In this document: one piece after another, positions 1,459 to 41,965 of the stretch
Position numbering within the stretch: position 1 is the stretch's first letter
Layout of the letters: every line of letters starts with the position of its first letter
The notes under the pieces: model-generated
The model's database searches: none
What the model saw: the letters and a program-made list of their open reading frames with translations, nothing else
What the model was told of the DNA's origin: nothing
Source: Steroidobacteraceae bacterium
Lineage (GTDB): Bacteria > Pseudomonadota > Gammaproteobacteria > Steroidobacterales > Steroidobacteraceae
NCBI GenBank assembly: GCA_035524595.1
Contig: DATKOP010000044.1
Location: 10,792-74,791, forward strand
DNA length: 64,000 bases
Direction of reading: 5' to 3'
Made by a program: the position numbers and the translations under genes

Positions 1459-4389
1459 GTGGCCGCGCTCGGCGTCGCGGCCGCGGCCCGTGCCGACCTC
1501 AAGTTCGTCGAGACCGACGAGCTTCGGCTCGTGTACCCGGACCCGGGCGCGACCTACCTGGTGCCGCACGCGACGCAGAGCTTCCTCGCGGGTCTCGCCG
1601 CCGAGCGGCGCCTCTTCGACTACGTGCCGGACGGGCGCGTCAACGTGCTGCTGCAGGACTTCAGCGACCGCGCCAACGCGAGCGCGATCGCGGCGCCGCG
1701 CAACCGGATCTTCTTCGACATCGCGCCGTCGAACGAGCCCTACGAGACCGTCTCGCCCGGCAACCGCTTCGACTGGACCGCGATGCACGAGCTGACGCAC
1801 CTCGCCCTCAACGACCGGGCGAGCCCCGCGGACGCGCGCTATCGCAGCCTGTTCCGCGGCAAGGTCGACGTCGACGCCGCCCATCCCGAGAGCCTCCTGT
1901 ACTACTACCTGACCGTGCCGCGCGCGACCGCGCCGCGCTGGTACCAGGAGGGCGGCGCGGTGTTCATGGAGACCTGGCTGAGCGGCGGCGTCGGCCGCGC
2001 GCAGGGCGGCTACGACGAGATGGTGTTCCGCGCGATGGTGCACGACGACGCCAGGTTCTACGACCCGCTCGGCCTCGTCTCCAAGGGCACCGAGATCGAC
2101 TTCAAGTCCGGCGGCAACGCCTACCTCTACGGCACGCGCTTCATGGACTACCTGGCGCTGACCTACGGCCCCGACCGGCTGCTCGCCTGGTGGCGCCGCG
2201 ATGACGGCAGCCGGCGCTACTACGCCGACCAGTTCCGGCAGGTGTTCGGCCTGCCGCTCGAGGAGTCCTGGCGCCAGTGGGTCGCCTTCGAGCACCGCTT
2301 CCAGCGGCAGAACCTCGAGGCGGTGCGCGCCCAGCCGCTCACGTCCTACCAGGACCTGACGCACCGCGACCTCGGCGCGATCTCGCGCGCCTTCCTGTCC
2401 GCGGACGGTGCGCGACTGTACGCGGCGGTCAAGTACCCGGGGCAGGTCGCGCACCTGGTCGCGATCGCGCGCGGCGACGGCGCGGTCACCGAGCTCAGGG
2501 AGATCAAGGGCGCGAGCGGCTACACGGTGACCTCGCTCGCCCACGACCCGGCGACGCAGACGCTCTTCTACACGACCAACAACGCGACCCACCGCAACCT
2601 CGAGGCCTTCGACCTGCGCTCGGGCCGCTCGCGGCTGCTGTTGCGCGCCGCGCGCATCGGCGACCTCGCCTTCAACGCCTCCGACCGGTCGCTGTGGGGC
2701 CTCAGGCTCAACAACGGCTTCGTGATGCTGGTGCGCATCCCGTACCCCTACGCCGAGTGGCAGACGCTCTACGTGTTCCCGGCCGGCGAGAAGGCCTTCG
2801 ACCTCGACCTGTCGGCCGATGGCGCGCTGGCGTCGCTGTCGGTGTCCGGCCCCGGCGCGACGCCGGGCGCGCCGCAGGTGACCCGCGTGCGGGTCTGGCG
2901 CGCCGAGGCGCTGGCCCGCGGCGAGGCGGCGCCGCTGCACGAGTTCGCGATGGGCAGCTCCGTGCCGGAGGGCTTCGTGTTCTCGCCCGACGGGCGCTGC
3001 CTGTACGGCAGCAGCTACTTCACCGGCGTCTCGAACATCTACCGCTACGACCTCGAGCGCGAGGCGCTCGATGCGGTCAGCAACGCGGAGATCGGCTTCT
3101 TCCGGCCGCTGCCGCTCGACGACACGCGCCTCATCGTGCTGCGCTACGCCGCCAAGGGCTTCGTGCCGACCGTGATCGAGGCGCGGCCGACCGAGGACCT
3201 GAGTGCGGTCACCTTCCTCGGCGAGCAGGTGTCGAGCCGCCATCCCGAGGTGCAGGACTGGGTCGCGACCGCGCCGACGACCATCGACGCCGAGCCCGAG
3301 GTCCGCCGCCGCGGCGCCTACCGGCCGCTCGGCGAACTGGCGCCGGAGTCGGTCATCCCGATGGTGCAGGGCTACAAGGACTCGGTGGCGCTCGGCGCCG
3401 CGGCGCGCTTCGGCGACCCGCTCGGCTTCGACTCGCTCGCGATCGAGGCGAGCTACAGCCCCGACCACGCGCTGCCCTCGAAGGAGCGCCTGCACTTCTC
3501 GGCCGACGCGCACCACGGCCGCTGGACCACCGGCGTCGCCTGGAACGGCGCCGACTTCTACGACCTGTTCGGTCCGACGAAGCGCAGCCGCGCCGGCTAC
3601 AATGGCTACGTCAGCTACGACCAGCCGCTCGTGTTCGACCCGCCGCAGTCGATGGACTTCCTGACCAAGGTCGCCTACTACGGCGACCTCGACGCGCTGC
3701 CGGGCTTCCAGAACGTGCCGTCGCCCTCGAAGAACCTGTTCACCGCCGACCTCGGCCTGGTCGGCATCGACACGCGCTACTCGGCCGGCGCCGTCGACGC
3801 CGAGACCGGCCACAGCTGGTCGGTCAACGCGCACGCCTACGGCGCCGCCGGCGAGCTGATCCCGAGCATCGCGGGAACCTTCGACGTCGGCTTCGCGCTG
3901 CCGCTCGACCATTCCTCGATCTGGCTGCGCAGCGGCGCGGCGCTGTCGGCGGGCGATCGCACCGACCCGCTCGCCAACTTCTACCTCGGCGGCTTCGGCA
4001 ACAACTACGTCGACAGCGGCGGCAACGGCGGCGCGCAGCGCTACCGCGACCTCCTGAGCATGCCGGGCTTCGAGCTCGACGCGCTCAACGGCCGCTCGCT
4101 CGTCAAGGCGACGCTGGAATGGTGCCTGCCGCCGCTGCGCTTCGAGGCGCTCGGCTCGCCCGGCTTCTACGTCAGCTGGGCGCGGCCGGAGCTGTTCGCG
4201 GGCCTGCTCGAGACCGACCCCGGCAGCCCGAGCTACCGGCGCGGCGCGCAGGACGTCGGCGCGCAGCTCGACTTCCAGCTGCACGTGATGCACCGGCTGC
4301 CGATGATGCTGTCGATCGGCGTGGCACGCGGCTTCGGCGGCGGCGGCGCCGGCACCAGCGAGTTCATGCTGTCGCTGCAGGTGCTGTGA
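1459..4389 (+). CDS. large secreted/outer-membrane protein: HExxH (Peptidase_MA-like) domain + PD40/TolB-like beta-propeller region + C-terminal beta-barrel-like (Omp85-like) region
   Basis: 976-aa ORF. Short hydrophobic N-terminus (AALGVAAAARA). Zinc motif 'MHELTHL' followed by 'WYQEGGAVFME'. Propeller-type repeats ('FVFSPDGRCLYGSS', 'LFYTTNN'). Last ~350 aa show alternating beta-strand patterning with 'NFYLGGFGNNYV...LSMPGFELDAL...'. The GTG start at 1459 is uncertain. Confidence 0.7.
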   Translation: MAALGVAAAARADLKFVETDELRLVYPDPGATYLVPHATQSFLAGLAAERRLFDYVPDGRVNVLLQDFSDRANASAIAAPRNRIFFDIAPSNEPYETVSPGNRFDWTAMHELTHLALNDRASPADARYRSLFRGKVDVDAAHPESLLYYYLTVPRATAPRWYQEGGAVFMETWLSGGVGRAQGGYDEMVFRAMVHDDARFYDPLGLVSKGTEIDFKSGGNAYLYGTRFMDYLALTYGPDRLLAWWRRDDGSRRYYADQFRQVFGLPLEESWRQWVAFEHRFQRQNLEAVRAQPLTSYQDLTHRDLGAISRAFLSADGARLYAAVKYPGQVAHLVAIARGDGAVTELREIKGASGYTVTSLAHDPATQTLFYTTNNATHRNLEAFDLRSGRSRLLLRAARIGDLAFNASDRSLWGLRLNNGFVMLVRIPYPYAEWQTLYVFPAGEKAFDLDLSADGALASLSVSGPGATPGAPQVTRVRVWRAEALARGEAAPLHEFAMGSSVPEGFVFSPDGRCLYGSSYFTGVSNIYRYDLEREALDAVSNAEIGFFRPLPLDDTRLIVLRYAAKGFVPTVIEARPTEDLSAVTFLGEQVSSRHPEVQDWVATAPTTIDAEPEVRRRGAYRPLGELAPESVIPMVQGYKDSVALGAAARFGDPLGFDSLAIEASYSPDHALPSKERLHFSADAHHGRWTTGVAWNGADFYDLFGPTKRSRAGYNGYVSYDQPLVFDPPQSMDFLTKVAYYGDLDALPGFQNVPSPSKNLFTADLGLVGIDTRYSAGAVDAETGHSWSVNAHAYGAAGELIPSIAGTFDVGFALPLDHSSIWLRSGAALSAGDRTDPLANFYLGGFGNNYVDSGGNGGAQRYRDLLSMPGFELDALNGRSLVKATLEWCLPPLRFEALGSPGFYVSWARPELFAGLLETDPGSPSYRRGAQDVGAQLDFQLHVMHRLPMMLSIGVARGFGGGGAGTSEFMLSLQVL

Positions 4390-6400: not shown

Positions 6401-8374
6401 TCAGCGGTCGATCGAGACGCTCAGCAGGAAGCGCCGGCCGAGCTCGGGGATCACCTGGCCGAAGGGCGTCAGGTGCAGGCCGCGCGCGTCGCTGAGATTG
6501 AGCGCATCGAGGCGCACCGTGAAGGGGTGATTGTGCAGCCGTGACTCGTAGCGCAGGCCCGCGCTCGCGGTGGTGAGCGGCGGCAGCGTCGCGTCGTTGG
6601 CGAGGGTCGCGGTGCGCTCCGAGAGGCGCGCGAGCTGCACCGAGCCCGCGAACGGCCGCAGCACGGGCGGCGCGTAGTCGACATTGAGCGACAGCGTCAG
6701 CGGCACCGGGCCGATCGGCACCGAGCCGAGCCCGGCGGCGGGCTCGGTGCGGTCGAGGTGCGGCTTCAGCCACACGCCGCCCGCCACGACCGTGAGCCCG
6801 GAGCCACCCGCGTAGGCGAGCGAGCTCTCGAGGCCGCGGTGGCGGACGGTGCCGAGCGCGCGGTAGGTGCCGGTCTCGTCGGTGTTGAAGTACACCTTCT
6901 GGATCTCGAAGCCGCCGAGCACCAGCGACAGGCCGTTCGCGGGCGCGTAGCGCAGGCCGCCGTCGACCTGGCGCGAGCGCGTCGCGGGCGGCGGCTGGCC
7001 GGGCACCGCGGAGTCGACCGGCGCGGGCGCCGAGTCCTCGAGGCCCTGCAGGAAGCTGCCGTACAGCGTCACCGCGTGCCCGGCCTCGACCGTGAACTTG
7101 AGGCTCGCGAGCCACGGCGTCGTCAGCTCGCCCTGCGCGATGCCGGGCGTCTCAATGACGGTGCGCCGGTAGTGGCTCTTCAGCAGCCCGACGCCGAGCG
7201 TGCCGACGCCCTTCCAGCGCTCCTCGTACACGGCGCCGAGGTCGAGCTGGCGGGTCTCGTCGAGGTAGCTCGGGATTGGTGGCATGTCGAAGGGCGGCGG
7301 GCAGGTCTCAGGCGGCGTGGTCGGCGGACCGGAGTCCAGCGTCGTCGTGCCGTAGCACGCCAGCTGGTCGCCGCCGTAGGCGTGGTCGGCGCTGCGGCCG
7401 CGCAGCGAGAGGTCGAGCCGGCGCGTGTGCAGCTCGCCGCCGAACTCGCGCGCGAGGCGGACCTCGCCCGAGGTCGAGCTCGAGGTCAGCGGCGGCAGCC
7501 GGTCGAGCCGGTGATCGACCGTGCGATCGGGCAGGACCGAGAGGTATTCCTCGATGTCGGAGGCGCGGTCCGCCTCGCGCGCGTGGAACAGGCCGGCGGT
7601 CAGCGTCCAGCGCGCGCCGAGGCCCTGGTGGACCACGACGCCGAGCGTCGTCGCGTGCCAGCCGTAGCTCGTGAACGGCTGCGAGGCGAGCGCGCGCGCA
7701 TCGAACAGCGGCGGCACCTCGACGCCGTCGCTGAACACGAACGGCAGCAGCGCATGCTGGCTGCCGTTCATCGTCGACCAGAACGGCACGATCTCGGTGC
7801 GCGCCGACGGGCGCCAGCGCAGCACCACCCCGGCGCTCGTGTTGCCGGCCGCGCGCGCCTGGTCGCCGGCGAAGTCCTTGCTGTAGCCGAGGCAGGCGGA
7901 ACCGGCGAGGTGGTCGCCGAGCGGCGTCTGGCCCTCGATCAGCGCGGTCGCCTCCTGGTACGGACCGCGGGTCGCGACCGCGCCGAGCGCGGTCGCATCG
8001 CCCGGCGTGAACAGCCTCAGGTCCGCGATGCCGGTCGGCGCGGGGAAGCTGTACGACTGCGCCGTGATGCCGATCCGCATCACGGTCGCGCGCGCGGTGC
8101 AGGGACCGACGTAGGCGCTCGGGTTGTCGAAATAGAGGCCCTCGATGCGCAGGTTGCCGGCCTGCTGCGGGCTGAAGCCGCGCGCGTCCGCGATCGAGTA
8201 GAGGCCGATCGCCTGGTTGCCGACCGCGAGCCCGAAGGCGTCCTCGGCGACCGAGACGGCGTTCTCCTGCACCGGCTCCGCGGCGGCGGCGGCCGCGGCG
8301 AGCGCCAGCACGAGCGCGCTGAGCGGCGCGCGCGCGCGCCGCCGCGCGCCCGCCCGCGATCCGCCCCCGCTCAC
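6401..8374 (-). CDS. TonB-dependent-receptor-like outer-membrane beta-barrel protein
   Basis: Start placed at GTG 8374 ([34 protein letters not shown] signal peptide). Plug-like 'GNQAIGLYSIADARGFSPQQAGNLRIEGLYFD', then about 550 aa of barrel-type sequence. The rest of the 1385-aa track ORF upstream is shadow reading over the neighbouring gene. Confidence 0.6.
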   Translation of the reverse strand: MSGGGSRAGARRRARAPLSALVLALAAAAAAAEPVQENAVSVAEDAFGLAVGNQAIGLYSIADARGFSPQQAGNLRIEGLYFDNPSAYVGPCTARATVMRIGITAQSYSFPAPTGIADLRLFTPGDATALGAVATRGPYQEATALIEGQTPLGDHLAGSACLGYSKDFAGDQARAAGNTSAGVVLRWRPSARTEIVPFWSTMNGSQHALLPFVFSDGVEVPPLFDARALASQPFTSYGWHATTLGVVVHQGLGARWTLTAGLFHAREADRASDIEEYLSVLPDRTVDHRLDRLPPLTSSSTSGEVRLAREFGGELHTRRLDLSLRGRSADHAYGGDQLACYGTTTLDSGPPTTPPETCPPPFDMPPIPSYLDETRQLDLGAVYEERWKGVGTLGVGLLKSHYRRTVIETPGIAQGELTTPWLASLKFTVEAGHAVTLYGSFLQGLEDSAPAPVDSAVPGQPPPATRSRQVDGGLRYAPANGLSLVLGGFEIQKVYFNTDETGTYRALGTVRHRGLESSLAYAGGSGLTVVAGGVWLKPHLDRTEPAAGLGSVPIGPVPLTLSLNVDYAPPVLRPFAGSVQLARLSERTATLANDATLPPLTTASAGLRYESRLHNHPFTVRLDALNLSDARGLHLTPFGQVIPELGRRFLLSVSIDR

Positions 8375-11546: not shown

Positions 11547-11574
11547 GCGGCGGCCCGAGCGCGCAAGCCCAGGG

Positions 11575-11595
11575 CCGGCGGCGTCGGGCCGCCGG
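11575..11595. terminator. GC-rich hairpin between convergent genes
   Basis: CCGGCGGC (11575-11582) / GCCGCCGG (11588-11595) with a 5-nt loop, between the ybhB-like stop and the cytochrome c4 stop. No T tract. Confidence 0.3.
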
Positions 11596-11625
11596 TCGCG
11601 GGCGTTCGGGCGGGGCGGCGGGCGC

Positions 11626-12249
11626 CTAGTGCTGCGCCTCGAGGTAGGCCGCGACCGCACGCATCTCCTCGAGCTTGAGCCCCTGCGCGACGCCGTGCAT
11701 GACGGCGACGTTGCGCATGTTGCTCTGGAAGGAGCCGAGCTGCTTCAGCACGTACTGCGCGTGCTGGCCGGCGAGCCGCGGGAAGTCGCCCATGCCGCGC
11801 GCATCCGGGCCGTGGCAGGCCGCGCAGGCGGGCACGCCCACCGCCTCGACGCCCTTCTCGTAGATCTGCCGCCCGCGATCGACGAGCGAGGCCTCGCCGG
11901 CATGGCCGGCGCCGGGCTTCTGCGCCGCGTAGTACTGCGCCAGCGCCTCGATCGTGTCGTCCTCGAGCGCGGCCGACATGCCCCACATGTAGCCGATCGC
12001 GTCGGCGTCGCCGCGCGTCTGGCTGCGGAAGGCCTTGAGCTGCGCGGCCAGGTAGTTGGCGTTCTGGCCGGCGAGCCGCGGGTACTTCGGCTGCTGGCTG
12101 ACGCCGGTGGCCCCGTGGCAGCTGCCGCAGGTGCCGACCGCGATGCGCACCGCGTGCTCGTGGGTGGCGGCGTCGATCGTGTCGGCGCGCGCGGCGCCGA
12201 GGCCGAGCGCGCACAGGAGCCCGAGGGCCATGGCGATTGGATGTCTCAT
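11626..12249 (-). CDS. dihaem cytochrome c4 (Cyc1-like periplasmic cytochrome)
   Basis: ATG 12249. Signal peptide MRHPIAMALGLLCALGLGAARA. Two CXXCH motifs (CGSCH, CAACH), each followed by 'PRLAGQ' and a distal Met (MWGM, VMHG). Confidence 0.85.
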   Translation of the reverse strand: MRHPIAMALGLLCALGLGAARADTIDAATHEHAVRIAVGTCGSCHGATGVSQQPKYPRLAGQNANYLAAQLKAFRSQTRGDADAIGYMWGMSAALEDDTIEALAQYYAAQKPGAGHAGEASLVDRGRQIYEKGVEAVGVPACAACHGPDARGMGDFPRLAGQHAQYVLKQLGSFQSNMRNVAVMHGVAQGLKLEEMRAVAAYLEAQH

Positions 12250-12278
12250 CAGATGCGCTCCTTCAGGTCCGGCGCGGG

Positions 12279-13667
12279 TCAGTAGGACAGCCAGGCAAGG
12301 ATGTAGAGCGTGTTGTTGTCGCTCGCCTTGCGCGGCAGCGTCACGCTGCCGGTGCTGTTGTTCCACAGGTAGCTGCTGCCGCCGTTGTACTTGTTGTAGC
12401 CCGTGTACTGGATCGAGAACTTCGTGTTCAGCCACGGCATGTAGTTGAGCTCGGCGACCCAGCCGTCCGTGTCCGGCGTCGTGTTGCCGTTGCCGCCGTA
12501 GAGCCCGGCGTCGGCGCTGCCGGTCGTGTGGAAGTAGCCGATCGTGCCGCCGATCTTGCGCTTGTAGTAGTAGGTCGCGAAGCCGCGGATCGTGGTCAGG
12601 TCGTCGCTCGCGTTGGCCGAGCCGCCCTCGCCGCCGGCGTAGGTCGCATCCAGCGTCTGCTTCTCGTGGATCCGCGTCGCGGTGAAGCTGACGAGGTGCT
12701 GGTCGCCCGCGTACTGGTACTGCACGTCCTCGGCGACGTCCTGGAACTGGTCGGTCGGGCCGCTGAGCGGCGCGCCGTTGGCCGGCAGCATCTTGAAGGT
12801 CGCGCCGTAGAGTCCGCCCTCGATCGAGTGCCGGCCCCAGTTGTGCTCGTAGGCGAGGCGCCAGTACGGCGCGCTGCCCGAGACCACCGCCGCGGTCTGC
12901 GTGCTGTCGAGCGGCCCGGCCGTGCCCTGGCGCGCGGTGCGATAGAGGCCGAGCTCGGCGTACAGCGACTCGTTCCAGAACACGTAGCCCGTGAGCCCGG
13001 CCACGTCCTGGCCGAGCGCGCCGTCGATCATCGTGCCGTAGGGGACCCCGGGCGCGCTGTTGGAGGCCGCGTACGGGAAGCCGAAGGCCGGCGTCGTGTT
13101 CCACAGGTCCTGGACCGTCGGGTTGTTGTTGAGCGACAGGCCGTAGATCAGGCTCTTGTCGCCCGGCAGCACCTTGAGGTCGGTGAAGCGGATGTCGGTG
13201 TTGTCGATGCCGATCGTGCCCGAGTCGTTGCCGTAGGTGAGCTGCAGGAACGCGCCGAGGTGCGGCGCGATCTTGCCGGCGTAGAAGAGGCTCACCTGCT
13301 GCGGGAAGGCGACCGTGCCGTTCTGCGACTGGCCGGTGCCCGAGTCGTCCGGCAGCGGCGTCGCGAGCTGGGTGAAGGAGACCTGCACCATCAGCGACAG
13401 CGGCGGCAGGCTCGCGAGCGAGAGCATCTCCTCCTTCTGCGCGGTGACGCCGCGGACCTGCTTGAGGTTGTCGAGGATGTAGCCGTTCGCCTTGAACACC
13501 CGGCCGAAGTGCGTCAGCTCCGGCCAGACCGTGTGGCAGGCCTCGCAGGCCATGCCGGTCTGCCGGGCGAAGCTCGGCACGGCCTCCGCCGCGGGAGCGG
13601 CCAGCACGACGAGGACCGGGACCAGTAGCCGGGCTGCCAGTCGAGCCCAATGACGATCGAGGTTCAT
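12279..13667 (-). CDS. cyc2: Cyc2-like fused monohaem cytochrome c / outer-membrane porin (candidate Fe(II) oxidase)
   Basis: AAGGAG 6 nt upstream of ATG 13667. Signal peptide. Its only two Cys form CEACH within '[32 protein letters not shown]'. About 410 aa of Cys-free beta-barrel-type sequence ending LAWLSY. Confidence 0.65.
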
Positions 13668-13900
13668 TTCCGCTCCTTAAGCAGCATCGCCCATCGCTTC
13701 GAAGTCGCGCAAAAGCTAACCGGCCGGATCGGCAATACCCAGCCGGCCAATTGCGTATTCAGTAAGGAGTTGCCGCCGGGCGGCGCCCCGTGCCTGCGGC
13801 CGGCCCGCTCTTGCGGCGCGCCCCGGCCCGTGCGTGGGCGGCTCCTGCGCCCGGCTCGCGCCGGCGGGCAGCGCGACCCGCGATCGGCGAGAATGCGCAC

Positions 13901-16068
<2,168 letters not shown>

Positions 16069-24944: not shown

Positions 24945-27074
24945 TCAGCGGCGCCGGCTGCCCGCGGGGCGGCCCTCGGCCGCGCCCGCCGCGGCGCCCG
25001 CGCGCGGCGGGAAGCGGGCCGTGACGTCCGCTGCCGACAGCGGCCGTGACAGCAGGAACCCCTGGCCCTCGTGGCAGCCGCGGCGGCGCAGCCACGCCAG
25101 CTGCGCCGGGGTCTCGATGCCCTCGGCGGTGACGGTGAGGCGCAGGCTCTCGCCGAGCGACAGGATCGCGTTCGCGATCGCGGCGTCGCTCGGCGAGCGG
25201 TCGACGTTGCGCACGAACGCCTGGTCGATCTTGATCCGGTCGGGCGGGAAGCGCGTGATGTAGGCGAGCGAGGAGTAGCCGGTGCCGAAGTCGTCGAGCG
25301 CGATCCGGCAGCCCAGCCTGCGGAAGCGGTCGAGCGCGCCGCGCACCGTCGCCGAGTCCTTGACCAGCAGCGACTCTGTGAGCTCGATCTCGATCAGCGA
25401 GGCCGGGATGCCGGCGGCCTGGGCCTCCTGCTCGAGCGTCCGGGCCGGGTCGCCGTGCACCAGCTCCTTGGCCGAGACGTTGATCGCGACCGGGATCGCC
25501 CGGCCCTGGTCCAGCCAGGCGCGGACCTGGCGGCACGCCGCACGCATCACCCACGCGCCGAGGTCGATGATCAGGCCGCTGTCCTCGGCGATCGAGACGA
25601 AGCGCGCCGGCGGCACCTGGCCATGGTCGGTGTCGCACCAGCGCACCAGCGCCTCGAGGCCGACCACCTGGTCGTCGGCGAGGCGGAACTTCGGCTGGTA
25701 CTGCAGCTGCAGCTGCTCGCTGCGCAGCGCCTTGCGCAGCTTGGCCTCGAGGTCCAGCCAGTCGCGCAGCCGGCTGCTCATCGCCGGCGCATACACGGCG
25801 ATCGCGCCGGTGGCGGCGGACTTGGCCTGGTACATCGCGGTGTCGGCGTGCTTGAGCACGGTCGCGACGTCCGGGCCGTCCTCGGGATAGACCGCGATGC
25901 CGATGCTCGGCGTCGAGTGGAACTCGAGGCCGCGGTACGCGATCGGCTCCTTGAGCGTCGCGTAGCAGGCGTTGGCGATCTCGAGCGCGGGCGCGGCGGC
26001 CGCGGCGTGGCGCAGCAGCACCACGAACTCGTCGCCGCCGAAGCGCGCCAGCGACAGGTGCTCGTGCTGCCGCTCGAAGCGCGCGATCGTCGCGGCGAGC
26101 TTGGTGGCCACCGTCTGCAGCACCGCATCGCCGACCGGGTGGCCGAAGGTGTCGTTGATGCGCTTGAAGCCGTTGAGGTCGAGGTAGACGACCGCCACCG
26201 ACTCGCCGGCCGCGGCCGCCTCGGCGACCAGGCGGTCGGCGGTCTCGAGGCAGCGCTGGCGGTTGGGCAGCGACGTCAGCGGGTCGAAGTAGGCGAGCCG
26301 CTCGATGCGCTCGGCGGCGGCGGCGCGCTCGCTGGTGTCGCGACGCACGACCACGACGTCGCCGCCCTCGCGGCGGCTGAAGCGCAGCTCGTAGGAGCGC
26401 TCCTTGCCGGCGGCGCGCGCCTCGCGGTAGTCGAGCTTGCGGGCGACGCCATCCGCGGCCGTGGCCCGGATCGCGTCCAGCGCCCGCTCGAGCTGCTGCG
26501 GCGGCGCCATGCCGAGCCTGAGGTTGTGCGAGCTCGTGCTCGCGACGCCGGACGGGTCGCCGTCGAAGATGCGCGGGCTCCAGCGGATCTCGCCGTCCAC
26601 GGTCACGACCCAGAGGCGGTCCGGCAGCGCCTCGACCAGGGTGCGGACCTGGGCCTCGCGCTCGGCGAGCGCACGGATCTGGGCGGCGTTTCGCAGGATG
26701 TACTCGAGCCGGTACGGCAGCAGCGTCCAGTTGACGGGCTTCTGGACGAAGTCCGTGGCGCCGGCGTCGAAGGCGCGCGCCACCGCCTTCGAGTCGTCGT
26801 GGCCGGTGACGATCACGATCGGCAGGGTCGCGAAGCGCGGCTCGGCGCGCAGCCGCCGGCAGACCGAGTAGCCGTCGAGGCCGGGCATGTCGACGTCGAG
26901 CAGCACCAGCGCGGTATCGTCCTGCGCGAGCGCCGCCTCGAGCGCCGCCAGGCCGTTGTCGGTCGCGATCGGCACGAGCCCCGCGGCGGTGGCGGACTCG
27001 GCGAGCAGCAGCCGGCCGAGATCCTCGTCGTCGGCGATCACCGCGACCGGACCCTTGTCGGCGCGCGTGCTCAC
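24945..27074 (-). CDS. response regulator with REC-PAS-GGDEF-EAL architecture (c-di-GMP turnover)
   Basis: GTG 27074 overlaps the kinase stop (GTGA). REC ('VLLDVDMPGLDG'), intact 'RFGGDEFVVLL', intact EAL motifs 'GLEALVRW' and 'DDFGTGYSSL'. Confidence 0.88.
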   Translation of the reverse strand: MSTRADKGPVAVIADDEDLGRLLLAESATAAGLVPIATDNGLAALEAALAQDDTALVLLDVDMPGLDGYSVCRRLRAEPRFATLPIVIVTGHDDSKAVARAFDAGATDFVQKPVNWTLLPYRLEYILRNAAQIRALAEREAQVRTLVEALPDRLWVVTVDGEIRWSPRIFDGDPSGVASTSSHNLRLGMAPPQQLERALDAIRATAADGVARKLDYREARAAGKERSYELRFSRREGGDVVVVRRDTSERAAAAERIERLAYFDPLTSLPNRQRCLETADRLVAEAAAAGESVAVVYLDLNGFKRINDTFGHPVGDAVLQTVATKLAATIARFERQHEHLSLARFGGDEFVVLLRHAAAAAPALEIANACYATLKEPIAYRGLEFHSTPSIGIAVYPEDGPDVATVLKHADTAMYQAKSAATGAIAVYAPAMSSRLRDWLDLEAKLRKALRSEQLQLQYQPKFRLADDQVVGLEALVRWCDTDHGQVPPARFVSIAEDSGLIIDLGAWVMRAACRQVRAWLDQGRAIPVAINVSAKELVHGDPARTLEQEAQAAGIPASLIEIELTESLLVKDSATVRGALDRFRRLGCRIALDDFGTGYSSLAYITRFPPDRIKIDQAFVRNVDRSPSDAAIANAILSLGESLRLTVTAEGIETPAQLAWLRRRGCHEGQGFLLSRPLSAADVTARFPPRAGAAAGAAEGRPAGSRRR

Positions 27075-30000
27075 GCGCTCGCCCGCAGCGTGAGGCGGCC
27101 GAGCTCCTCGAGCAGCGCCGGGAAGGCGGCGTCGAGCCGGGCGTAGAGGCCCTGGCAGGCGGCCGGGTCGCCCTCGCCGCACCGCTGCTCGAGCTCGCGC
27201 AGCGCCGCGGCGAAGCCGCTGGCGCCGACGTTGCCCGCGCTCGCCCTGAGCTTGTGGCAGCAGGCGCGCGCCGCGCCGTAGTCGCCGGCCGCGAGCGCGG
27301 CGCGCAGCTCATCGAGCGCCTGCGTGCCGGAGGTCCGAAACAGCGCCACCAGCCGGCTGTAGAGGTCGAGCGGGCCGCGCACCGAGAGGTTGCGCAGACC
27401 GGCGACGATGCTCGCGTCGACGCCGGCGAGGGCGGCGCCGGGCGCCGCCGCGGCGGCGCGCCGCGGCACCCAGCGCTCGAGCATCGCGGCGCACTCCGCG
27501 AGCGTGTACGGCTTGCCGAGCAGGTCGTTCATGCCCGCCGCCTGGCAGCGCGTGCGGTACGCCGCCGAGTCGTGCGCGGTCAGCGCCACCACCGGCACGG
27601 CCTGGTTGGGCCCTGGCCGCTGGCGCAGCAGCGCCGCGGTCGCGAAGCCGTCCAGCACCGGCATGCTGATGTCGAGGAGCACCAGGTCGAAGCGCTGCGC
27701 GGCGCACTGCGCGAGCGCCGCGGCCCCGTCGGCGACCGCGACCGAGGTGCAGCCGAGCTCGGCCAGGTAGCCCTCGGCCACGGCGGAGTTGACGGGCTCG
27801 TCGTCGACGACCAGCACGTGGCCGCCGACCGCGGCGACGGGCGTGGCCGCCGCCGGGAACGGCGCTGCGGCCGGGGTGCCGGCGGCGGCGTCGGCCGCGG
27901 CGATGGCACGCTCGAGGTCGGCGCGCTGCACCGGCCGGCCGACGACCGGCGCGGCACCGACCAGCGACAGGAGCCCCGCGCCCTCGGCCTCGGCCTCCGA
28001 GGCGACCACGATCAGCGGCCGGCGCCGGCCCTCGGGCACCGAGAGCTGCGCGCGCAGGTAGTCGAGGTGGGTGCTGGCATCGAGGATCAGCAGCGCACCG
28101 TCGTCGGCCGCGGCGCCCGCCTCGGTCGCGCCGCCGTCGACGACGCGCAGGCCGAGCGCGCGCGCGTGCCGCGAGAGCGCCTCGGCGAGTGCCGGCCGCC
28201 GCGTGACGATGCGCACCGGCCGCGCCGGCACCGGCGCCCGCTGCGCGGCGGCGGCGTCGCAGCGCAGGCGCAGCGTCGCGCGGAAGGTGGAGCCGGCGCC
28301 CTGGCGGCTCTCGACCTCGATCCCGCCGCCCATCAGCTGCGTGAGCTCGCGGCAGATCGCGAGCCCGAGCCCGGTGCCGCCGAAACGGCGGCTGGTCGAC
28401 TCGTCGGCCTGCGTGAACGGCTCGAAGATCTTCTCGATCGCCTGCGGCGCCATGCCGATGCCGGTGTCGCTGACCGCGAACTCGACGTCGGCGGCGCCGG
28501 GCCCGGCCGGCCGCACGTTGGCCTCGACGACGATGTGGCCGCGGTCGGTGAACTTGACCGCGTTGCCGACGAGGTTCAGGAGGATCTGGCGGATGCGCAG
28601 CGGGTCGCCGACCAGCGTGTACGGGGCGGGTTGCGGCGGCACCACCGTCAGGTCGAGCCCCTTGCCGAGCGCGGCGCCGGCAAAAAGCGCGACCGATTCC
28701 TCGAGGATCGCCACCAGGTCGAGCGGCACCGCCTCGAGCTCGATCTTGCCGGCCTGGGCCTTCGACAGGTCGAGCAGGTCGTTGACGATCTGCAGCAGCA
28801 GCTCGGCCGAGGAGCGGATCGTCTGTGTCAGTCGCGCCTGCGCCGCCGACAGCCCGGTACGGTCGAGGAGCTCGGTCATGCCGACCACGCCGTTCATCGG
28901 CGTGCGCAGCTCGTGGGTCATGCGCGCGAGGAACGCGCTCTTCTCCTGTGCCGCAGCCTCGAGCAGCCGGTTGCTCTCGCGAAGGTCCTTGGTGCGCGAG
29001 GCGACCTCGTCCTCGAGCCGCTCGCGGGCCGCGACCGCCTGCGCGAGGCTGCGCTTCTGCCGCCACGCGGCCAGCACGGCGAGCGCGAGCGCCGCGGCGA
29101 TGTAGGCGGCGAACGCAGCCGGCGAGCGCCACGGCGCCGGCGCCTTGTGGATCGTGAGCCGCAGCGGCGCCGCGCTCCACACCGAGTCGGCGCTCGCGGC
29201 GCGCACCTCCAGCAGGTGGTCGCCGGCATCGAGGTTGGTCAGCGTCACGTGATGCTGCCCGCCGAGGTCGATCCACCGGTCGCTCAGGTCCACCATCCGG
29301 TAGGCGAGGCGGTTGCGCTTCGGCGAGGTGAAGTCGAGCGCGCCGAAGCCGAGCGAGACGATCGTCGCGTGCGAGCCGACGTCGATGCGCTCGAGCAGCC
29401 AGTAGGGCGTCGGGCTCGGCAGCGGCACGCCGACGACGTCGACCTGCAGCAGCGCGACCCGCGGCGGCCGGTCGTGCTCGTCGAGCCTCAGCGGGTCGAA
29501 GATGTTGAAGCCGCCGGGGCCGCCGAAGCAGAGCCGCCCGTCCGGCAGGCGCCGGTAGGCGCCGAAGTTGAACTCCTCGCCCTGCAGCCCCTGCTCGACG
29601 TGGAAGGTGCGCACCGCGCGCGTGCGCGGGTCGTAGCGCATCAGGCCCGAGTTGCCGCTCAGCCACAGGCGCCCGCCGGCGTCGACCAGCACCGCGTAGA
29701 TCGTGTCGCTCGTGAGTCCGTTGGCGCGCGACACGCTCTGGAAGTGCACCGCCTCCGGCGCGCTCGAGCTGCCGATCACGAGCTCGAGGCCGCCGCCGTC
29801 GGTGCCGAGCCAGACGCGGCCGTCGCCGTCGACGGTGATGCCGTAGACGGTGTTCGCCGAGAGGCTGCCTGGGTCGGCGGGGTCGTGGCGGTAGACCTTG
29901 ATGACGGAGCCGTCCGGCCGCGCGAGGTTGAGGCCGCCGCCGTCGGTGCCCATCCAGATGTTGCCGTGCAGGTCCTCGGCGAGCGCGGTCACGTTGCCCG

Positions 30001-31540
30001 CGCTGACGGCGCCGGGCGCCGAGCCGCCGTAGGGCAGCTGCTGCACGCGGCCGGTGAGCGGGTTCAGCACGTTGGCGCCGCCGCCGTGCGTGCCGATCCA
30101 GATGCGCCCGTCGCGGCCGGCGTGGATCGCCATGATGCCGGGCGCACTCAGGCCGCGGGCGTCGCCCGGCTGCGAGACGAACGTGTCGAGCCCGCCGTCG
30201 GGCCGCAGGCGCCTGAGTCCGCTCGCCATCGTGCCGATCCAGAGCGCGCCCTGGCGGTCGGTCTCGAGCGACATGACGCGGGCGTCGCCGATGGCGTTCG
30301 GCCGCCCGAGCAGCGTGTCGATGCCGGTCCGCTCGCCGCTCTCCGGGTCGAAGCGGACCAGTCCGCCGCCGAGCGAGGCCACCCAGACCGTGCGGTCGGC
30401 GGCGGCGGCGAAGGCGGTGACCAGCTTGCCCGCGAGCCAGTCCGGCCGGCGGCCGCCGAGCTCCCAGCTGTGCGGATTCCAGCGGCTGACGCCGCCGGAG
30501 CGGGTGCCGATCCACACGAGGCCGGTCGGGTCCTCGTACAGGGACATCACGAACGAGTCGCGCAGCGAGCCGGCGTCGCGCTCGTCGTGCCGGTAGTGCA
30601 GGAATTCGCCGCTCAGCCGGTTCAGCAGGTCGAGGCCGTTCGCGGTCCCGACCCAGAGGTTGCCGCTGCGATCCTCGAGCAGCGCCTGGACGTCGTCGTG
30701 GCCGATGCTGCCGGCGCGGCGCGGGTCGTGCCGGTAGCGCGCGAGCACGCGCCCGGACGGGTCGATGCGGTTCAGCCCGCCGGCGAAGGTCGCGACCCAG
30801 AGGCTGCCGTCGCGGTCCTCGCGCAGCTGCGTGATCTGGTCGCTGCCGAGCGAGCGGCGATCGCTGGCCGAGTGCCGGTAGTGCGCGAACGAGCGGCCGT
30901 CCGGCAGCAGCCGGTCGAGACCGCCCTCGGTCCCGACCCACAGCGTCCCGGAGCGGTCGAGCAGCAGCGTCTTGACCCGGTCGTCGATCAGCGAGTCCGC
31001 GCGCGCCGCGTCGTGGCGCAGGTGCTCGACGCGGCCGGTCGCGCGGTCGAGCACGTCGACGCCGGCATCGCGGCTGCCGATCCAGAGACGGCCGCGGCCG
31101 TCGAGCAAGAGCGCGCGCACCGCATCGCTCGCGAGCGAGTCCGCGCGCGCCGGGTCGTGGCGGAACACCGTGAAGCTGTCGCTGCCGCGGTTCCAGCGCG
31201 CGAGCCCGCCGTCGACCACGGCGATCCACAGGTCGTGCTGCGGGTCCTCGACGATGGCCTGGATGAAGTTGCCGGGCAGGCCGTCGTGCGCGGCGGGCGA
31301 GTAGCCGTAGCGAAACAGCTCGTGCCCCGTGTAGCGGACGAGACCGTCCTCGGTGCCGAGCCAGACGAAGCCCTGCGAGTCCTGCAGCGTCGCGTAGACG
31401 GTGCCCTGCGGCAGCCCGTCGGCGGTCGTCAGGTGCTCGAGCGCGAACGGCCGCGAGTCGGCGCCGAGCGCGGCGCCCGGCGCGCCGAGCGCGCAGATGA
31501 GCCCGGCCAGCAGATGAAGACGCCAACGGGTCGGGCCCAT
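27071..31540 (-). CDS. hybrid sensor histidine kinase with periplasmic two-component-regulator propeller/Y_Y_Y domain, HisKA-HATPase, receiver(s) and HPt
   Basis: 1489 aa. Signal peptide, many 'G.VW.GT..GL.R' propeller repeats, TM helix, H-box 'MTHELRTPMNGV', 'GTGLGLAICREL', REC 'DLVLLDISMPVLDG', C-terminal HPt 'CHKLRASAGNVGA'. Confidence 0.9.
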   Translation of the reverse strand: MGPTRWRLHLLAGLICALGAPGAALGADSRPFALEHLTTADGLPQGTVYATLQDSQGFVWLGTEDGLVRYTGHELFRYGYSPAAHDGLPGNFIQAIVEDPQHDLWIAVVDGGLARWNRGSDSFTVFRHDPARADSLASDAVRALLLDGRGRLWIGSRDAGVDVLDRATGRVEHLRHDAARADSLIDDRVKTLLLDRSGTLWVGTEGGLDRLLPDGRSFAHYRHSASDRRSLGSDQITQLREDRDGSLWVATFAGGLNRIDPSGRVLARYRHDPRRAGSIGHDDVQALLEDRSGNLWVGTANGLDLLNRLSGEFLHYRHDERDAGSLRDSFVMSLYEDPTGLVWIGTRSGGVSRWNPHSWELGGRRPDWLAGKLVTAFAAAADRTVWVASLGGGLVRFDPESGERTGIDTLLGRPNAIGDARVMSLETDRQGALWIGTMASGLRRLRPDGGLDTFVSQPGDARGLSAPGIMAIHAGRDGRIWIGTHGGGANVLNPLTGRVQQLPYGGSAPGAVSAGNVTALAEDLHGNIWMGTDGGGLNLARPDGSVIKVYRHDPADPGSLSANTVYGITVDGDGRVWLGTDGGGLELVIGSSSAPEAVHFQSVSRANGLTSDTIYAVLVDAGGRLWLSGNSGLMRYDPRTRAVRTFHVEQGLQGEEFNFGAYRRLPDGRLCFGGPGGFNIFDPLRLDEHDRPPRVALLQVDVVGVPLPSPTPYWLLERIDVGSHATIVSLGFGALDFTSPKRNRLAYRMVDLSDRWIDLGGQHHVTLTNLDAGDHLLEVRAASADSVWSAAPLRLTIHKAPAPWRSPAAFAAYIAAALALAVLAAWRQKRSLAQAVAARERLEDEVASRTKDLRESNRLLEAAAQEKSAFLARMTHELRTPMNGVVGMTELLDRTGLSAAQARLTQTIRSSAELLLQIVNDLLDLSKAQAGKIELEAVPLDLVAILEESVALFAGAALGKGLDLTVVPPQPAPYTLVGDPLRIRQILLNLVGNAVKFTDRGHIVVEANVRPAGPGAADVEFAVSDTGIGMAPQAIEKIFEPFTQADESTSRRFGGTGLGLAICRELTQLMGGGIEVESRQGAGSTFRATLRLRCDAAAAQRAPVPARPVRIVTRRPALAEALSRHARALGLRVVDGGATEAGAAADDGALLILDASTHLDYLRAQLSVPEGRRRPLIVVASEAEAEGAGLLSLVGAAPVVGRPVQRADLERAIAAADAAAGTPAAAPFPAAATPVAAVGGHVLVVDDEPVNSAVAEGYLAELGCTSVAVADGAAALAQCAAQRFDLVLLDISMPVLDGFATAALLRQRPGPNQAVPVVALTAHDSAAYRTRCQAAGMNDLLGKPYTLAECAAMLERWVPRRAAAAAPGAALAGVDASIVAGLRNLSVRGPLDLYSRLVALFRTSGTQALDELRAALAAGDYGAARACCHKLRASAGNVGASGFAAALRELEQRCGEGDPAACQGLYARLDAAFPALLEELGRLTLRASA

Positions 31541-31670
31541 CGTGTGACTCGGTTAGCCGCCTTTCTGGCCGCGCGCGCAGCGCCCCGGGGAGTGGCTACC
31601 GGCCGGCACCGCAGGCATTAAGGTTAATGACCCCCCGGCGGGCCACCGGCAACCCAGTTCTCAGTTCTCG

Positions 31671-32150
31671 CTACTGAGCTGCAATCCACGCCGCGATCGA
31701 CGCCAGCGCTTCAGCCGCGGGCTGCACGACGGCGGCGTTCAGCCAGGGGACGGACTTGCTCCACGCGAAATCCTTGCTCCAGGGGTGGCGCTTGGTCCAG
31801 CGGTAGCCCGACGACCAGGTGTAGCCGGCCGACCAGTCGTGGCCCGGCGACGCGGCCTGGCCCTCGTTCCACGTATAGCCCGCATTCCACGGGTAGCCGG
31901 CAGACCGGCTCAGGCCATCGCCGGCGAGCGGCGCGCCCGACCCTGAGCCTGCGACGCTCATCACGTAATGATTGCCGGCCGCATCGCGGTTCGCCGGCCC
32001 GCCCTCGCGGGCGGCGGTTGCGGCGCGGTTCGTGCCGGCGGTCGCTGCCTGTCCGCCGACCGACGTCGGCTCCGCCAGCAGCGCCGCGAGCACGCCGAGC
32101 AGCGCGCAGGCGGCGCCGGCGGTCAGCGAGACTCGAGTTCCAACACCCAT
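31671..32150 (-). CDS. small secreted protein with hexad tryptophan repeats (no recognisable family)
   Basis: 159 aa, GC3-rich codons. Hydrophobic N-terminus (LTAGAACALLGVLAALLA). Trp at residues 88, 94, 106, 112, 118, 124, 130, 136 (AGYPW/NAGYTW/SAGYTW/SSGYRW/TKRHPW/SKDFAW/SKSVPW). Confidence 0.55.
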   Translation of the reverse strand: MGVGTRVSLTAGAACALLGVLAALLAEPTSVGGQAATAGTNRAATAAREGGPANRDAAGNHYVMSVAGSGSGAPLAGDGLSRSAGYPWNAGYTWNEGQAASPGHDWSAGYTWSSGYRWTKRHPWSKDFAWSKSVPWLNAAVVQPAAEALASIAAWIAAQ

Positions 32151-32313
32151 CGTGACGATCCCGGCACAGGGGAGCCCGCGGCTCCGTGTCGGTAATTAGA
32201 GACCGGCAGGGGCTGCGCGGTCCGGGACCACCCGCCGGCCGGGACGGCGCCGAGCGTGACCGCGAGCACATAACGACCGGTCAAATGGCGCCGCCCGGCG
32301 GCGCCGCAGGCGG

Positions 32314-36302
<3,989 letters not shown>

Positions 36303-37060: not shown

Positions 37061-37945
37061 ATGGCCGCACCCGGCGAGCCGCCCGACCCCGAAGCGACCG
37101 AGCCGGCCGGCACGGTCGCCGTCGACGTCTCCGACGAGCCGGTGCACTGGGACGTGCCGCAGGCGCAGACCTACGGCGGCTACCTCGACCTCGCGCGCCT
37201 GCTCGGCGCGCAGCATCCGCGCTCGCCGGAGCACGACGAGATGCTGTTCATCATCGTGCACCAGACGAGCGAGCTGTGGATGAAGCTGTGCCTGCACGAG
37301 CTGAAGGCGGCAATCGCCTGCATCCGCCGCGACGAGCTGGCGCCGTGCTTCAAGATGCTGACCCGGGTCGGCCACATCCAGCGCCAGCTGGTGCACGCCT
37401 GGGACGTGCTGGCGACGCTGACGCCGTTCGACTACTCGAGCTTCCGCAACCAGCTGGGCCGAGCCTCGGGCTTCCAGTCGTGGCAGTACCGGCTGCTCGA
37501 GTTCACGATCGGCAACAAGAACCGCGACCTGATCGCGGTGCACCGCGCCGATCCCGCCGCCTACCAGCTGCTCGAGCAGGCGCTCGTGGCGCCGTCGCTG
37601 TACGACGAGACGCTGCGGCTCTTGTCGCGGCGCGGCTTCGAGATCCCGGAGGCGCTGCTCGACCGCGACTTTTCCGCGCCCTACGTCGCACACAAGCGGG
37701 TCACGGCGGCCTGGCTCGCGGTCTACCACAGCATCGACGCGCACTGGGACCTCTACGAGCTCGCCGAGAAGCTCGTCGACCTCGACCACCGCTTCCAGCT
37801 GTGGCGCTTCGCACACATGAAGACCGTCGAGCGCATCATCGGCTACAAGCGCGGCACCGGCGGCACGAGCGGCGTCGCCTACCTCGCCAAGGCGCTGGAG
37901 CTGCGCTTCTTCCCGGAGCTCTGGTCGGCGCGCACCTCGATGTAG
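37061..37945 (+). CDS. kynA: tryptophan 2,3-dioxygenase
   Basis: 'YGGYLDLARLLGAQHPRSPEHDEMLFIIVHQTSELWMKL', 'SGFQSWQYRLLEF', '[11 protein letters not shown]'. Confidence 0.9.
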   Translation: MAAPGEPPDPEATEPAGTVAVDVSDEPVHWDVPQAQTYGGYLDLARLLGAQHPRSPEHDEMLFIIVHQTSELWMKLCLHELKAAIACIRRDELAPCFKMLTRVGHIQRQLVHAWDVLATLTPFDYSSFRNQLGRASGFQSWQYRLLEFTIGNKNRDLIAVHRADPAAYQLLEQALVAPSLYDETLRLLSRRGFEIPEALLDRDFSAPYVAHKRVTAAWLAVYHSIDAHWDLYELAEKLVDLDHRFQLWRFAHMKTVERIIGYKRGTGGTSGVAYLAKALELRFFPELWSARTSM

Positions 37946-38571
37946 CCGGCGGCCGCGGCCGCCGCCGCGCGGCGGCGGCGCCAGGCGCCGAGCGCGCGCG
38001 GCAGCATCAGCAGCGCAAACACGGCCGCGTAGACGAGCGGCTCGCGCACGTCGCGCTTCACCTGCCAGTAGAAGTGCCAGCAGCCGAGCAGCGTCGCCGG
38101 GTAGATCGCGTAGTGCAGCCGCTGCCAGCGGCGCCCGAGCCGGCGCTGCGCCGCGTGCGTCGAGGTCGCGGCGAGCGGCGCGAGCAGCACGAAGGCCGCG
38201 GCCCCGAGCGTGATCCAGCGGCGCTTGGCGACGTCCTCGAGCAGCACGCGCCAGTCGAAGCCCTGGTCGACCGCGAAGTACATCGCGAGGTGCAGCGACA
38301 GGTAGCAGAACGCAAACAGGCCGAGCATGCGCCGGTACAGCAGCCAGCGCGGCTGGCCGGTCAGCCGCCGCAGCGGCGAGACCGCCAGCGTCGCGAGCAG
38401 GAGCCTCAGCGCCCACAGGCCGAGCGTGTCGGTGATCGCGGCCACCGGGTTCGCGCCGAGGCCGAGGCCGCCGAGCCCGAAGGCGCGCACCGCGAGGTTG
38501 GCGAGCGGCAGCAGCAGGGCGACGAACAGCGCCGTCTTGCCGGCGCGCCGCCACCAGAAGTCGGCGCTCAG
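37879..38571 (-). CDS. msrQ: protein-methionine-sulfoxide reductase haem-binding subunit MsrQ (YedZ); start uncertain
   Basis: Follows msrP with stop/start overlap. '[32 protein letters not shown]', '[17 protein letters not shown]', '[19 protein letters not shown]'. Only a CTG (38571) is available in frame near the expected N-terminus. The C-terminal tail overlaps the kynA 3' end. Confidence 0.75.
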
Positions 38572-39629: not shown

Positions 39630-39971
39630 CTAGCGCGGCCGGCGGCGGCGCCCGGCCGCGCCGGCGGCGCGCGGTGCAGGCTGCGGGCGGATGGCGAGGC
39701 GCAGGCCGAACGCGCGCAGCACGGTCGCGACGGTGCGCATCTCGGGATTCCCGGCCGGCGACAGCACCTTGTAGAGGAAGGTGCGATTCAGGCCGGTGGC
39801 GGCGGCGAGGCGGCCGACGCCGCCCGCGCGGCGCGCCAGCGCGCGCAGCGCATCGAGCACCTCCGCGTCAGCCGCGCGCTCGAGCAGGCCGTCGAGCTCG
39901 CGCGCGATCGATGCGAGTTCCGCCGGCGCGAACGGCGGGCTGGACGTGCGGCTGGCGGGCGTCTTCTTCAT
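39630..39971 (-). CDS. HigA/'addiction-module antidote'-type HTH DNA-binding protein (no cognate toxin gene)
   Basis: 113 aa. 'LDALRALARRAGGVGRLAAATGLNRTFLYKVLSPAGNPEMRTVATVLRAFGLRLAI' matches the antidote-protein HTH pattern. Its ATG overlaps the stop of the upstream membrane-protein gene (ATGA). Confidence 0.65.
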   Translation of the reverse strand: MKKTPASRTSSPPFAPAELASIARELDGLLERAADAEVLDALRALARRAGGVGRLAAATGLNRTFLYKVLSPAGNPEMRTVATVLRAFGLRLAIRPQPAPRAAGAAGRRRRPR

Positions 39972-41448: not shown

Positions 41449-41449
41449 C

Positions 41450-41962: not shown

Positions 41963-41965
41963 CGC

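Follow-up and report, generated by a model that had tools for sequence, protein, structure and literature searches.

A Cyc2-like fused cytochrome-porin and a Cyc1-like dihaem cytochrome c4 form a stand-alone candidate Fe(II)-oxidation pair in a Steroidobacteraceae genome

The 64,000-nucleotide (nt) stretch of contig DATKOP010000044.1 analysed here (the window) comes from a Steroidobacteraceae bacterium and carries, on its minus strand, two adjacent genes that are almost certainly, as judged from their sequences, a true Cyc2/Cyc1-family pair. The first, a cyc2-like gene (12279..13667, minus), encodes a protein of 462 amino acids (aa) that open reading frame (ORF) analysis, BLASTP, AlphaFold2 (AF2), and Foldseek together describe as a monohaem cytochrome c fused to a predicted 16-strand outer-membrane porin. 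The second, a cyc1-like gene (11626..12249, minus), encodes a 207-aa periplasmic dihaem cytochrome c4, identified by Pfam and by a match in the Protein Data Bank (PDB). Family membership should be kept apart from function: that the pair runs in the Fe(II)-oxidising direction and serves that role is a reading to which our analysis gives an even chance.

Keffer et al. (2021) describe Cyc2 by a signal peptide, a single CXXCH motif, the motif AXPXFAR[Q/K][T/Y], the motif PXL, a length of at least 365 aa, and a 16-strand porin, and state that AXPXFAR[Q/K][T/Y] before CXXCH is unique to Cyc2 (PMC8406198). The 462-aa protein has every sequence feature on this published list, and a 16-strand porin is predicted for it. 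A Sec-type signal peptide (residues 1-29; 13581..13667, minus) is read by eye from a basic n-region, a hydrophobic core, and an inferred cleavage site in ...AAPAAEA/VP, and the AF2 model has a helix at residues 5-22 of this region. The haem-binding N-terminal domain (13482..13580, minus) matches the consensus with A29-V-P-S-F-A-R-Q-T37, followed by G-M-A and then by C41-E-A-C44-H45 (nt 13547-13533), a CEACH haem c motif that contains the only two cysteines of the protein; four residues past it, PXL is found as P49-E-L51 in H45-T-V-W-P49-E-L51. The remaining 417 residues lack cysteine, the residues enriched in the mature protein are Gly (11.5%), Thr (9.5%), Tyr (6.2%), and Asn (5.5%), and the C-terminus reads ...ILAWLSY. 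The original prediction, made from the sequence alone, had listed the 462-aa length, the signal peptide, the two cysteines in C41-E-A-C44-H45, some 410 Cys-free residues rich in Gly, Asn, and Thr, and the LAWLSY end, and each of these is found in the translated gene.

These motifs are not peculiar to one genome. In an alignment of 58 homologues, C41, C44, H45, and the flanking motif (about 20 residues) are invariant, and they are common to Acidithiobacillus ferrooxidans Cyc2; PEL occupies the PXL position in 115 of 116 close homologues. The haem sites of both proteins of the pair appear, from such conservation, to be under strong purifying selection.

Comparison with a reference Cyc2 extends the match to the full length of the protein. 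The reference comes from an A. ferrooxidans-type contig carrying a rus operon (L001), whose Cyc1 is 99% identical to the A. ferrooxidans structure 1H1O; the rus-operon contigs were fetched from metagenomes using the 1H1O sequence as query. BLASTP, with a threshold of E <= 1e-5, aligns the 462-aa protein with this Cyc2 from the signal peptide to the last residue at 36% identity (E 1e-71). The fused cytochrome-porin of the original prediction, for which a lack of similarity to Cyc2 had been named as the opposing outcome, is borne out by this match together with the signature motifs and the predicted 16-strand barrel. Published identities run from 27 to 35% inside the A. ferrooxidans cluster and from 17 to 23% between clusters (PMC8406198, Fig. 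S7); because its own identity to A. ferrooxidans Cyc2 is 36%, the protein would group comfortably with Cluster 2 (of McAllister 2020 and Keffer 2021; clusters named as in PMC7029218), a placement read from identity levels rather than from a tree or a direct comparison with Clusters 1 and 3. A reciprocal search from A. ferrooxidans Cyc2, through a word-indexed set of 5.8 billion proteins, gives the Acidithiobacillus/Acidiferrobacter clade as top matches (at least 43% identity), and the next best, at about 37%, include members of the 462-aa protein's own family (P0064, P0052, P0039, P0050, and P0067). In a word-indexed search of this kind, the Steroidobacteraceae-type Cyc2/c4 pair appears to be among the nearest non-acidophile relatives of A. 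ferrooxidans Cyc2.

Pfam and NCBIfam scans of the protein return no family match, and PDB sequence searches with it, as a single sequence and as a profile, return no solved relative. To our knowledge, no Cyc2 structure has been solved for comparison. The fold was predicted by AF2 on the 58-sequence alignment of homologues, and the model (predicted local distance difference test, pLDDT, 73.9; predicted template modelling score, pTM, 0.76) contains 16 beta-strands, which DSSP places between residues 90-101 (first) and 453-461 (last). The porin barrel (approximately residues 88-462; 12282..13406, minus) thus ends at the aromatic C-terminus, and Foldseek matches it in the PDB to the 16-strand general porins OmpT, Omp-Pst, PorB, and OmpF (E ~1e-9 to 1e-10, top ~5e-10). 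The haem-binding N-terminal segment is modelled with low confidence because the haem is not in the model. The 462-aa protein is best described as a predicted 16-strand outer-membrane porin barrel, in line with the barrel of about 16 strands that had been expected.

The second gene begins exactly 29 nt after the stop codon of the first, as had been noted, and the spacer (12250..12278, minus) holds the GGAG ribosome-binding site of the c4 gene, an arrangement that resembles operon coupling; GGAG lies 5' of the ATG in both genes. The 207-aa protein has CGSCH at residue 41 (nt 12129-12115) and CAACH at residue 142 (nt 11826-11812), with PRLAGQ at residues 57 and 157, which confirms the predicted pair of haem motifs and the two PRLAGQ motifs. 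Pfam finds Cytochrom_C twice. The best PDB match is the A. ferrooxidans c4 (Cyc1/CYC41) 1H1O, over residues 39-204 (E 3.1e-37), so the assignment to the same cytochrome class as Cyc1 stands. Like 1H1O, the protein has two class-I c domains, each with CXXCH, with PRLAGQ after each haem site and the Met positions kept, namely those aligned with the ligand-bearing YMW and LM segments. These features mark it as a soluble dihaem c4 of the periplasm in which both Met ligand positions are kept. Identity to the rus-operon Cyc1 is only 43%, and the protein also resembles generic Pseudomonas c4, that of P. stutzeri being second in the PDB search (E 1.8e-30). Its tie to Cyc2 is one of gene linkage more than of sequence. 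An NCBIfam match to PdsA was sub-threshold (44 bits against a cut-off of 330) and was not used.

The cyc2-like ORF is not a chance reading frame, since its G+C content at third codon positions (GC3) is 0.97, like that of its neighbours, and it has more than 7,000 homologues. The 2-kilobase (kb) bin 12001-14000 has the lowest G+C of the window (0.699, with an AT skew of -0.143), and recent horizontal transfer was considered on this account and rejected, given the GC3 of the gene. The lower values at the first and second codon positions (GC1 0.60, GC2 0.48) reflect the amino-acid composition of a porin and not a foreign origin, and the gene appears to be resident rather than recently acquired.

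The word-indexed search supplies the more than 7,000 matching proteins, and an exhaustive HMMER search puts the number of 50%-identity clusters at 3,289 with E <= 1e-3 and at 443 with E <= 1e-30. Among GTDB species genomes, at least 564 loci with a Cyc2-like homologue are confirmed, and the best 80 of these (56-84% identity) lie in Steroidobacteraceae, Steroidobacterales, or unclassified gammaproteobacterial metagenome-assembled genomes (MAGs), many of them from soil and peat projects; SPRUCE, palsa, and Microflora Danica sites are among the sources. In all 80, a c4 homologue starts 14-171 nt downstream of cyc2 on the same strand. The closest named relative, the Steroidobacteraceae MAG GCA_035524495.1 (85% identity), has the gene order of the window (thrABC, ygiQ, cyc2, c4, PEBP, GH81, TonB-dependent receptor), from which alone the window would very probably be placed in this family. 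Elsewhere the surroundings change, and the pair occurs in at least three unrelated contexts (ygiQ/PEBP; a NarL-type regulator; Crp plus HiPIP). Because c4 stays linked in 80 of 80 loci while the neighbourhood varies, the conserved unit is, as far as gene order can tell, the two-gene pair and not its neighbourhood.

Two details of these neighbourhoods may be recorded. A 262-aa gene with no recorded Pfam match lies between c4 and PEBP in the closest relatives (L009-L011 and L017-L019; in L009 at 12038-12826) and is missing from the window, where c4 and PEBP are about 80 nt apart (11547-11625). A HiPIP gene is found within 5 kb of the pair, upstream or downstream, in 17 of the 80 loci (L014, at 7576-7899, and 16 among L016-L095); HiPIP is a high-potential periplasmic carrier and is also discussed for Acidithiobacillus iron redox chains.

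Within the window, which has a G+C content of about 74%, the pair is flanked by a YbhB/PEBP-family gene and ygiQ, and a coding-frame scan of the 64 kb confines CXXCH to these two genes, so that no multihaem cytochrome gene besides the dihaem c4 is found there. When the window is searched by tblastn with A. ferrooxidans CoxA, CoxB, the cupredoxin ORF (Cup), rusticyanin, and a HiPIP, there are zero matches; in the control loci L001-L008 the Cup, CoxA, CoxB, and rusticyanin queries recover all of their genes. Pfam scans of 40 other called window genes return housekeeping, signalling, and tricarboxylic acid (TCA)-cycle genes, and no respiratory complex among them. The matches include thrA-thrB-thrC, aconitase, fumarase, adenylosuccinate lyase, and DAHP synthase, together with MsrPQ, Nramp, GGDEF/EAL and hybrid kinase signalling proteins, and an HrpA helicase; GH81, a TonB-dependent receptor, and amino-acid biosynthesis genes are also present. 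The original prediction had described a stand-alone two-gene module in a heterotroph-looking context, with unrelated flanks (YbhB-like and ygiQ) and without rusticyanin, terminal oxidase, or bc1 genes. The tblastn and Pfam results uphold that description, as do the housekeeping surroundings and the lack of cox and cup genes near the pair in 80 of 80 related loci.

It is useful to set the pair against the known systems. Like the rus-operon Cyc2 of A. ferrooxidans, the 462-aa protein has a signal peptide, a single CXXCH with PSFARQTG before it and PxL after it, a length in the region of 460-490 aa, and an aromatic end (...AW[LI]SY), and a dihaem c4 gene lies directly next to its own. The rus operon has the order cyc2-cyc1-cup-coxBACD-rus, whereas nothing from cup onward follows in the window: Cup, CoxA, CoxB, and rusticyanin are all lacking there. 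The hosts also differ, A. ferrooxidans being an acidophilic lithoautotroph and the window host a high-GC (74%), Steroidobacteraceae-like organotroph, and in the alignment several loops of the 462-aa protein are shorter than those of A. ferrooxidans Cyc2.

One residue pair near the haem motif deserves separate mention. Eight residues past the haem His, H53 (nt 13511-13509) is followed by Phe and is invariant in the close subfamily (116 of 116). All Acidithiobacillus/Acidiferrobacter Cyc2 have Pro-Met in place of H53-F54, and the wider family varies here (P/S/A/H). The clades may differ in how the haem is surrounded or ligated. The idea that His53 is the distal haem ligand throughout the family was considered and rejected, its invariance being limited to the close subfamily.

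The A. ferrooxidans stand-alone pair cyc2B-cyc1B (P0178 and an adjacent 213-aa dihaem c; L096/L097) offers the closer parallel in layout, with two genes on the same strand and no oxidase nearby, which is also what is found in the window. Cyc2B is 36% identical to the 462-aa protein (E 1e-74) and Cyc1B 44% identical to the 207-aa protein (E 5e-48). The window pair seems about equally similar to the rus and B copies, and on these values neither would be callable as its orthologue. The conditions under which Cyc2B and Cyc1B were detected are anaerobic, sulfur-oxidising, and Fe(III)-reducing, at low pH (PMC8790237).

Cluster 1 Cyc2 (Mariprofundus PV-1, Sideroxydans, and Gallionella), here compared by description only, share the published architecture and consensus motif, and that of PV-1, whose redox potential is 208 mV, oxidises Fe(II) at neutral pH (PMC8406198). 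The MtoAB, PioAB, and MtrAB systems likewise join an outer-membrane barrel to c-type haem and carry electrons across the outer membrane, but they do so with two proteins, a 26-strand barrel and a separate decahaem cytochrome (PMC8406198), whereas the window has a single polypeptide with 16 predicted strands and one haem.

If the pair oxidises iron, Fe(II) that is extracellular or enters the pore, dissolved or complexed, would give up its electron at the haem held at or in the Cyc2-like barrel, and the electron would pass to the co-expressed periplasmic c4 and from there to a cbb3- or aa3-type cytochrome c oxidase whose genes would lie in another part of the genome. The benefit to an organotrophic host might be supplementary energy (lithoheterotrophy), the keeping of Fe(II) oxidation outside the cell, or both; obligate iron lithoautotrophy is unlikely. 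His/Met c4 haems are of high potential, which suits them to taking up electrons from Fe(II) when the pH is near-neutral or mildly acidic rather than to reducing Fe(III) minerals. The Fe(II)-oxidation reading is put forward because of these haems and because Fe(II) oxidation in vitro is established for Cyc2 representatives of all three clusters (PMC8406198).

Several points weigh against this reading and should be kept in mind. By tblastn and Pfam, the window offers no downstream acceptor, whether oxidase, rusticyanin, cupredoxin, or bc1, and in the 80 related loci CoxA, CoxB, and the cupredoxin ORF are found within 5 kb of the pair in none, rusticyanin not having been searched there. The upstream regions described below show no enrichment of Fur or FNR boxes, and so offer nothing that ties expression to iron or oxygen. 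The sixth haem ligand looks ambiguous, H53 being limited to the subfamily, and the redox potential would not be predictable from the sequence. For this subfamily, we infer Fe(II) oxidation from homology, and Keffer et al. caution that homologues distant from characterised proteins need verification (PMC8406198). Finally, the stand-alone cyc2B-cyc1B of A. ferrooxidans has the same layout and is equally similar (36% and 44%), and its products are those detected in anaerobic Fe(III)-reducing cultures (PMC8790237). Because the window pair is equally similar to genes linked to Fe(III) reduction, the sequence does not settle the direction of electron flow.

That last point leads to the reverse conduit, in which electrons would run from the quinol pool or bc1 through c4 and the Cyc2-like haem to extracellular soluble or chelated Fe(III) or oxidised humics, as proposed for Cyc2B/Cyc1B. 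Near-neutral-pH Fe(III) minerals lie far below the typical potentials of His/Met c4, making outward transfer uphill as a matter of general knowledge, and in none of the loci examined does the pair have a bc1 or quinol dehydrogenase linked to it. In its favour are the shared stand-alone layout, a similarity to Cyc2B/Cyc1B that is equal or marginally higher than that to the rus copies (E 1e-74 against 1e-71; 44% against 43%), the origin of many related MAGs, by their record titles, in peat and soil, habitats of fluctuating redox, and the proposal that Cyc2 isoforms operate in reverse as terminal Fe(III) reductases (PMC8790237, PMC10715153), for which the Cyc2B evidence is a proteomic correlation only. 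We consider this direction decidedly improbable. An extracellular donor other than free Fe(II), such as Mn(II), reduced humic or dissolved organic matter, organically complexed metals, or conductive surfaces, strikes us as improbable too, without being far-fetched. A Cyc2 family homologue occurs in the electrode-oxidising Tenderia electrophaga (PMC7029218), where it has been proposed to draw electrons from cathodes, homologues in Ca. Manganitrophus are discussed for Mn lithotrophy (PMC9040806), the family is very large and diverse (the 3,289 clusters given above) with many members in non-iron-oxidisers (PMC10654088), and related MAGs come largely from organic-rich soils and peat. Set against this, every biochemically tested Cyc2 oxidises Fe(II), it has been argued that a monohaem inside a narrow 16-strand barrel has access to small dissolved species only (PMC8406198), and the pair is not linked to any Mn-oxidase or multicopper oxidase gene.

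Oxidation of Fe(II) might also be purely protective, keeping Fe(II) and its Fenton chemistry out of the periplasm at oxic/anoxic transitions with no meaningful energy conserved. The organotrophic context (GH81, TonB-dependent receptor, amino-acid biosynthesis, and TCA genes) agrees with this, as does the lack of linked dedicated oxidase, reverse-electron-transport, or carbon-fixation genes, and a small, cheap accessory widely retained in hundreds of soil species is what one might expect of a protective device. Electrons that reach c4 normally end at a proton-pumping oxidase, however, and some energy gain would be hard to avoid; the mechanism, moreover, overlaps with that of the Fe(II)-oxidation reading to a degree that sequence cannot separate. 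Protection alone is, on balance, unlikely. Far less credible than any of these is an ordinary diffusion porin with a structural or vestigial haem motif, next to a c4 that serves general respiration and is unrelated to it, which we regard as highly improbable. The fold does match general porins, c4 cytochromes commonly donate electrons to oxidases, and no curated Pfam or NCBIfam family covers the 462-aa protein. A vestigial motif is nonetheless hard to square with a CXXCH and some 20 flanking residues that do not vary among 58 homologues and recur in the functional A. ferrooxidans Cyc2 despite an overall identity of only 36%, or an unrelated c4 with its linkage in 80 of 80 genomes despite changing neighbourhoods.

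Upstream of cyc2, related loci share a short element that may bear on regulation. The hexamer TA[C/G]GTA is positionally fixed, about 90-100 nt before the cyc2 start codon, in 50 of 87 loci (L009-L095); TAGGTA and TACGTA occur in 28 loci each where about 3 are expected (8-9 fold enriched). The palindrome TACCTA-N6-TA[CG]GTA, with at most two mismatches, is found in 21 of the 87 against 2.35 expected, and it is perfect in 10. It looks like an operator, and one other than an FNR, Fur, or sigma-54 site. The window has a weak, degenerate copy (GAATACGCAATTGGCC; 13745..13760, minus) of this candidate operator or promoter element. Scans of 86 upstream regions for known boxes give no clear enrichment (FNR/CRP 4 against 3.15 expected, Fur 3 against 0.2, and sigma-54 13 against 10), and a sigma-70 and terminator scan of the locus finds nothing above shuffled sequences. 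Two candidates for a linked regulator, of the NarL response-regulator type (upstream in L012) and of the Crp family (near L014), were considered and set aside, neither being linked elsewhere or present in the window. One can go further and propose an active, regulated extracellular redox module, controlled through a TACCTA-N6-TAGGTA-type element and using His53 as second axial ligand, which would lower the potential of the haem and tune it to Fe(II) under neutral or mildly acidic conditions or to organically complexed iron; this is a speculative proposal that we think possible yet doubtful.

Several other features of the window may be noted by those annotating related genomes. A minus-strand run of five genes (39971-44519) could be a metal-uptake or reductive unit: it encodes an Nramp metal transporter (41966-43279), an FMN_bind protein (41450-41866), and an ApbE flavin transferase (40570-41448), together with two proteins that lack a Pfam match, one of 419 aa whose N-terminus is a coiled coil (43260-44519) and one of 200 aa (39971-40573). 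The periplasmic methionine sulfoxide repair pair (37879-39305), also on the minus strand, consists of an MsrP-like molybdopterin oxidoreductase (38568-39305) and a haem b membrane protein of the ferric-reductase type that resembles MsrQ (37879-38490). A dense signalling block (24945-34011, minus) contains a response-regulator-GGDEF-EAL protein, a 1,489-aa beta-propeller hybrid histidine kinase with Hpt, and another EAL protein, and a 976-aa protein without a Pfam match is encoded on the plus strand (1459-4389).

Much of the setting of this pair is already in print. Keffer et al. note many Cyc2 homologues outside known iron oxidisers and, in building their tree, took out over-sampled sequences of Burkholderia, Ralstonia, and Xanthomonas (PMC8406198). 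Homologues of A. ferrooxidans Cyc2/Cyc1 are described in Rhodanobacteraceae, Burkholderiales, and acid-mine heterotrophs, and stand-alone cyc2/cyc1 in Acidithiobacillus (PMC10654088); in Acetobacteraceae, a gene for a mono- or dihaem cytochrome often lies next to cyc2 (PMC10715153), and a Cyc2-like gene has been reported in a Steroidobacteraceae MAG (PMC8357290). A further source, PMC12442345, contains nothing on Cyc2 homologues in heterotrophs. With homologues in non-iron-oxidisers, stand-alone pairs, and a Cyc2-bearing Steroidobacteraceae MAG all published, the find is a fairly ordinary one, which confirms an existing suspicion in the field (PMC8406198, PMC10654088) and opens no new question.

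Its interest lies in the use made of the gene. Cyc2 is the main genetic marker for inferring microbial iron oxidation from genomes, and here a well-conserved Cyc2/Cyc1-type pair, with no dedicated oxidase, is fixed across a large group of Steroidobacteraceae that has radiated in soil and peat. If the pair is active, iron oxidation by organotrophs, or some other extracellular redox exchange, would be wider in soils than cultured iron oxidisers suggest, and marker-gene surveys should score such matches as facultative lithoheterotrophy and not as classical iron lithotrophy. Were the regulated module proposed above to prove true, iron cycling would have gone unrecognised in abundant soil Gammaproteobacteria classed as 'heterotrophic'. 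For work on what the pair does in this clade, the strict linkage of cyc2 to c4 and the element conserved upstream of cyc2 provide concrete handles.

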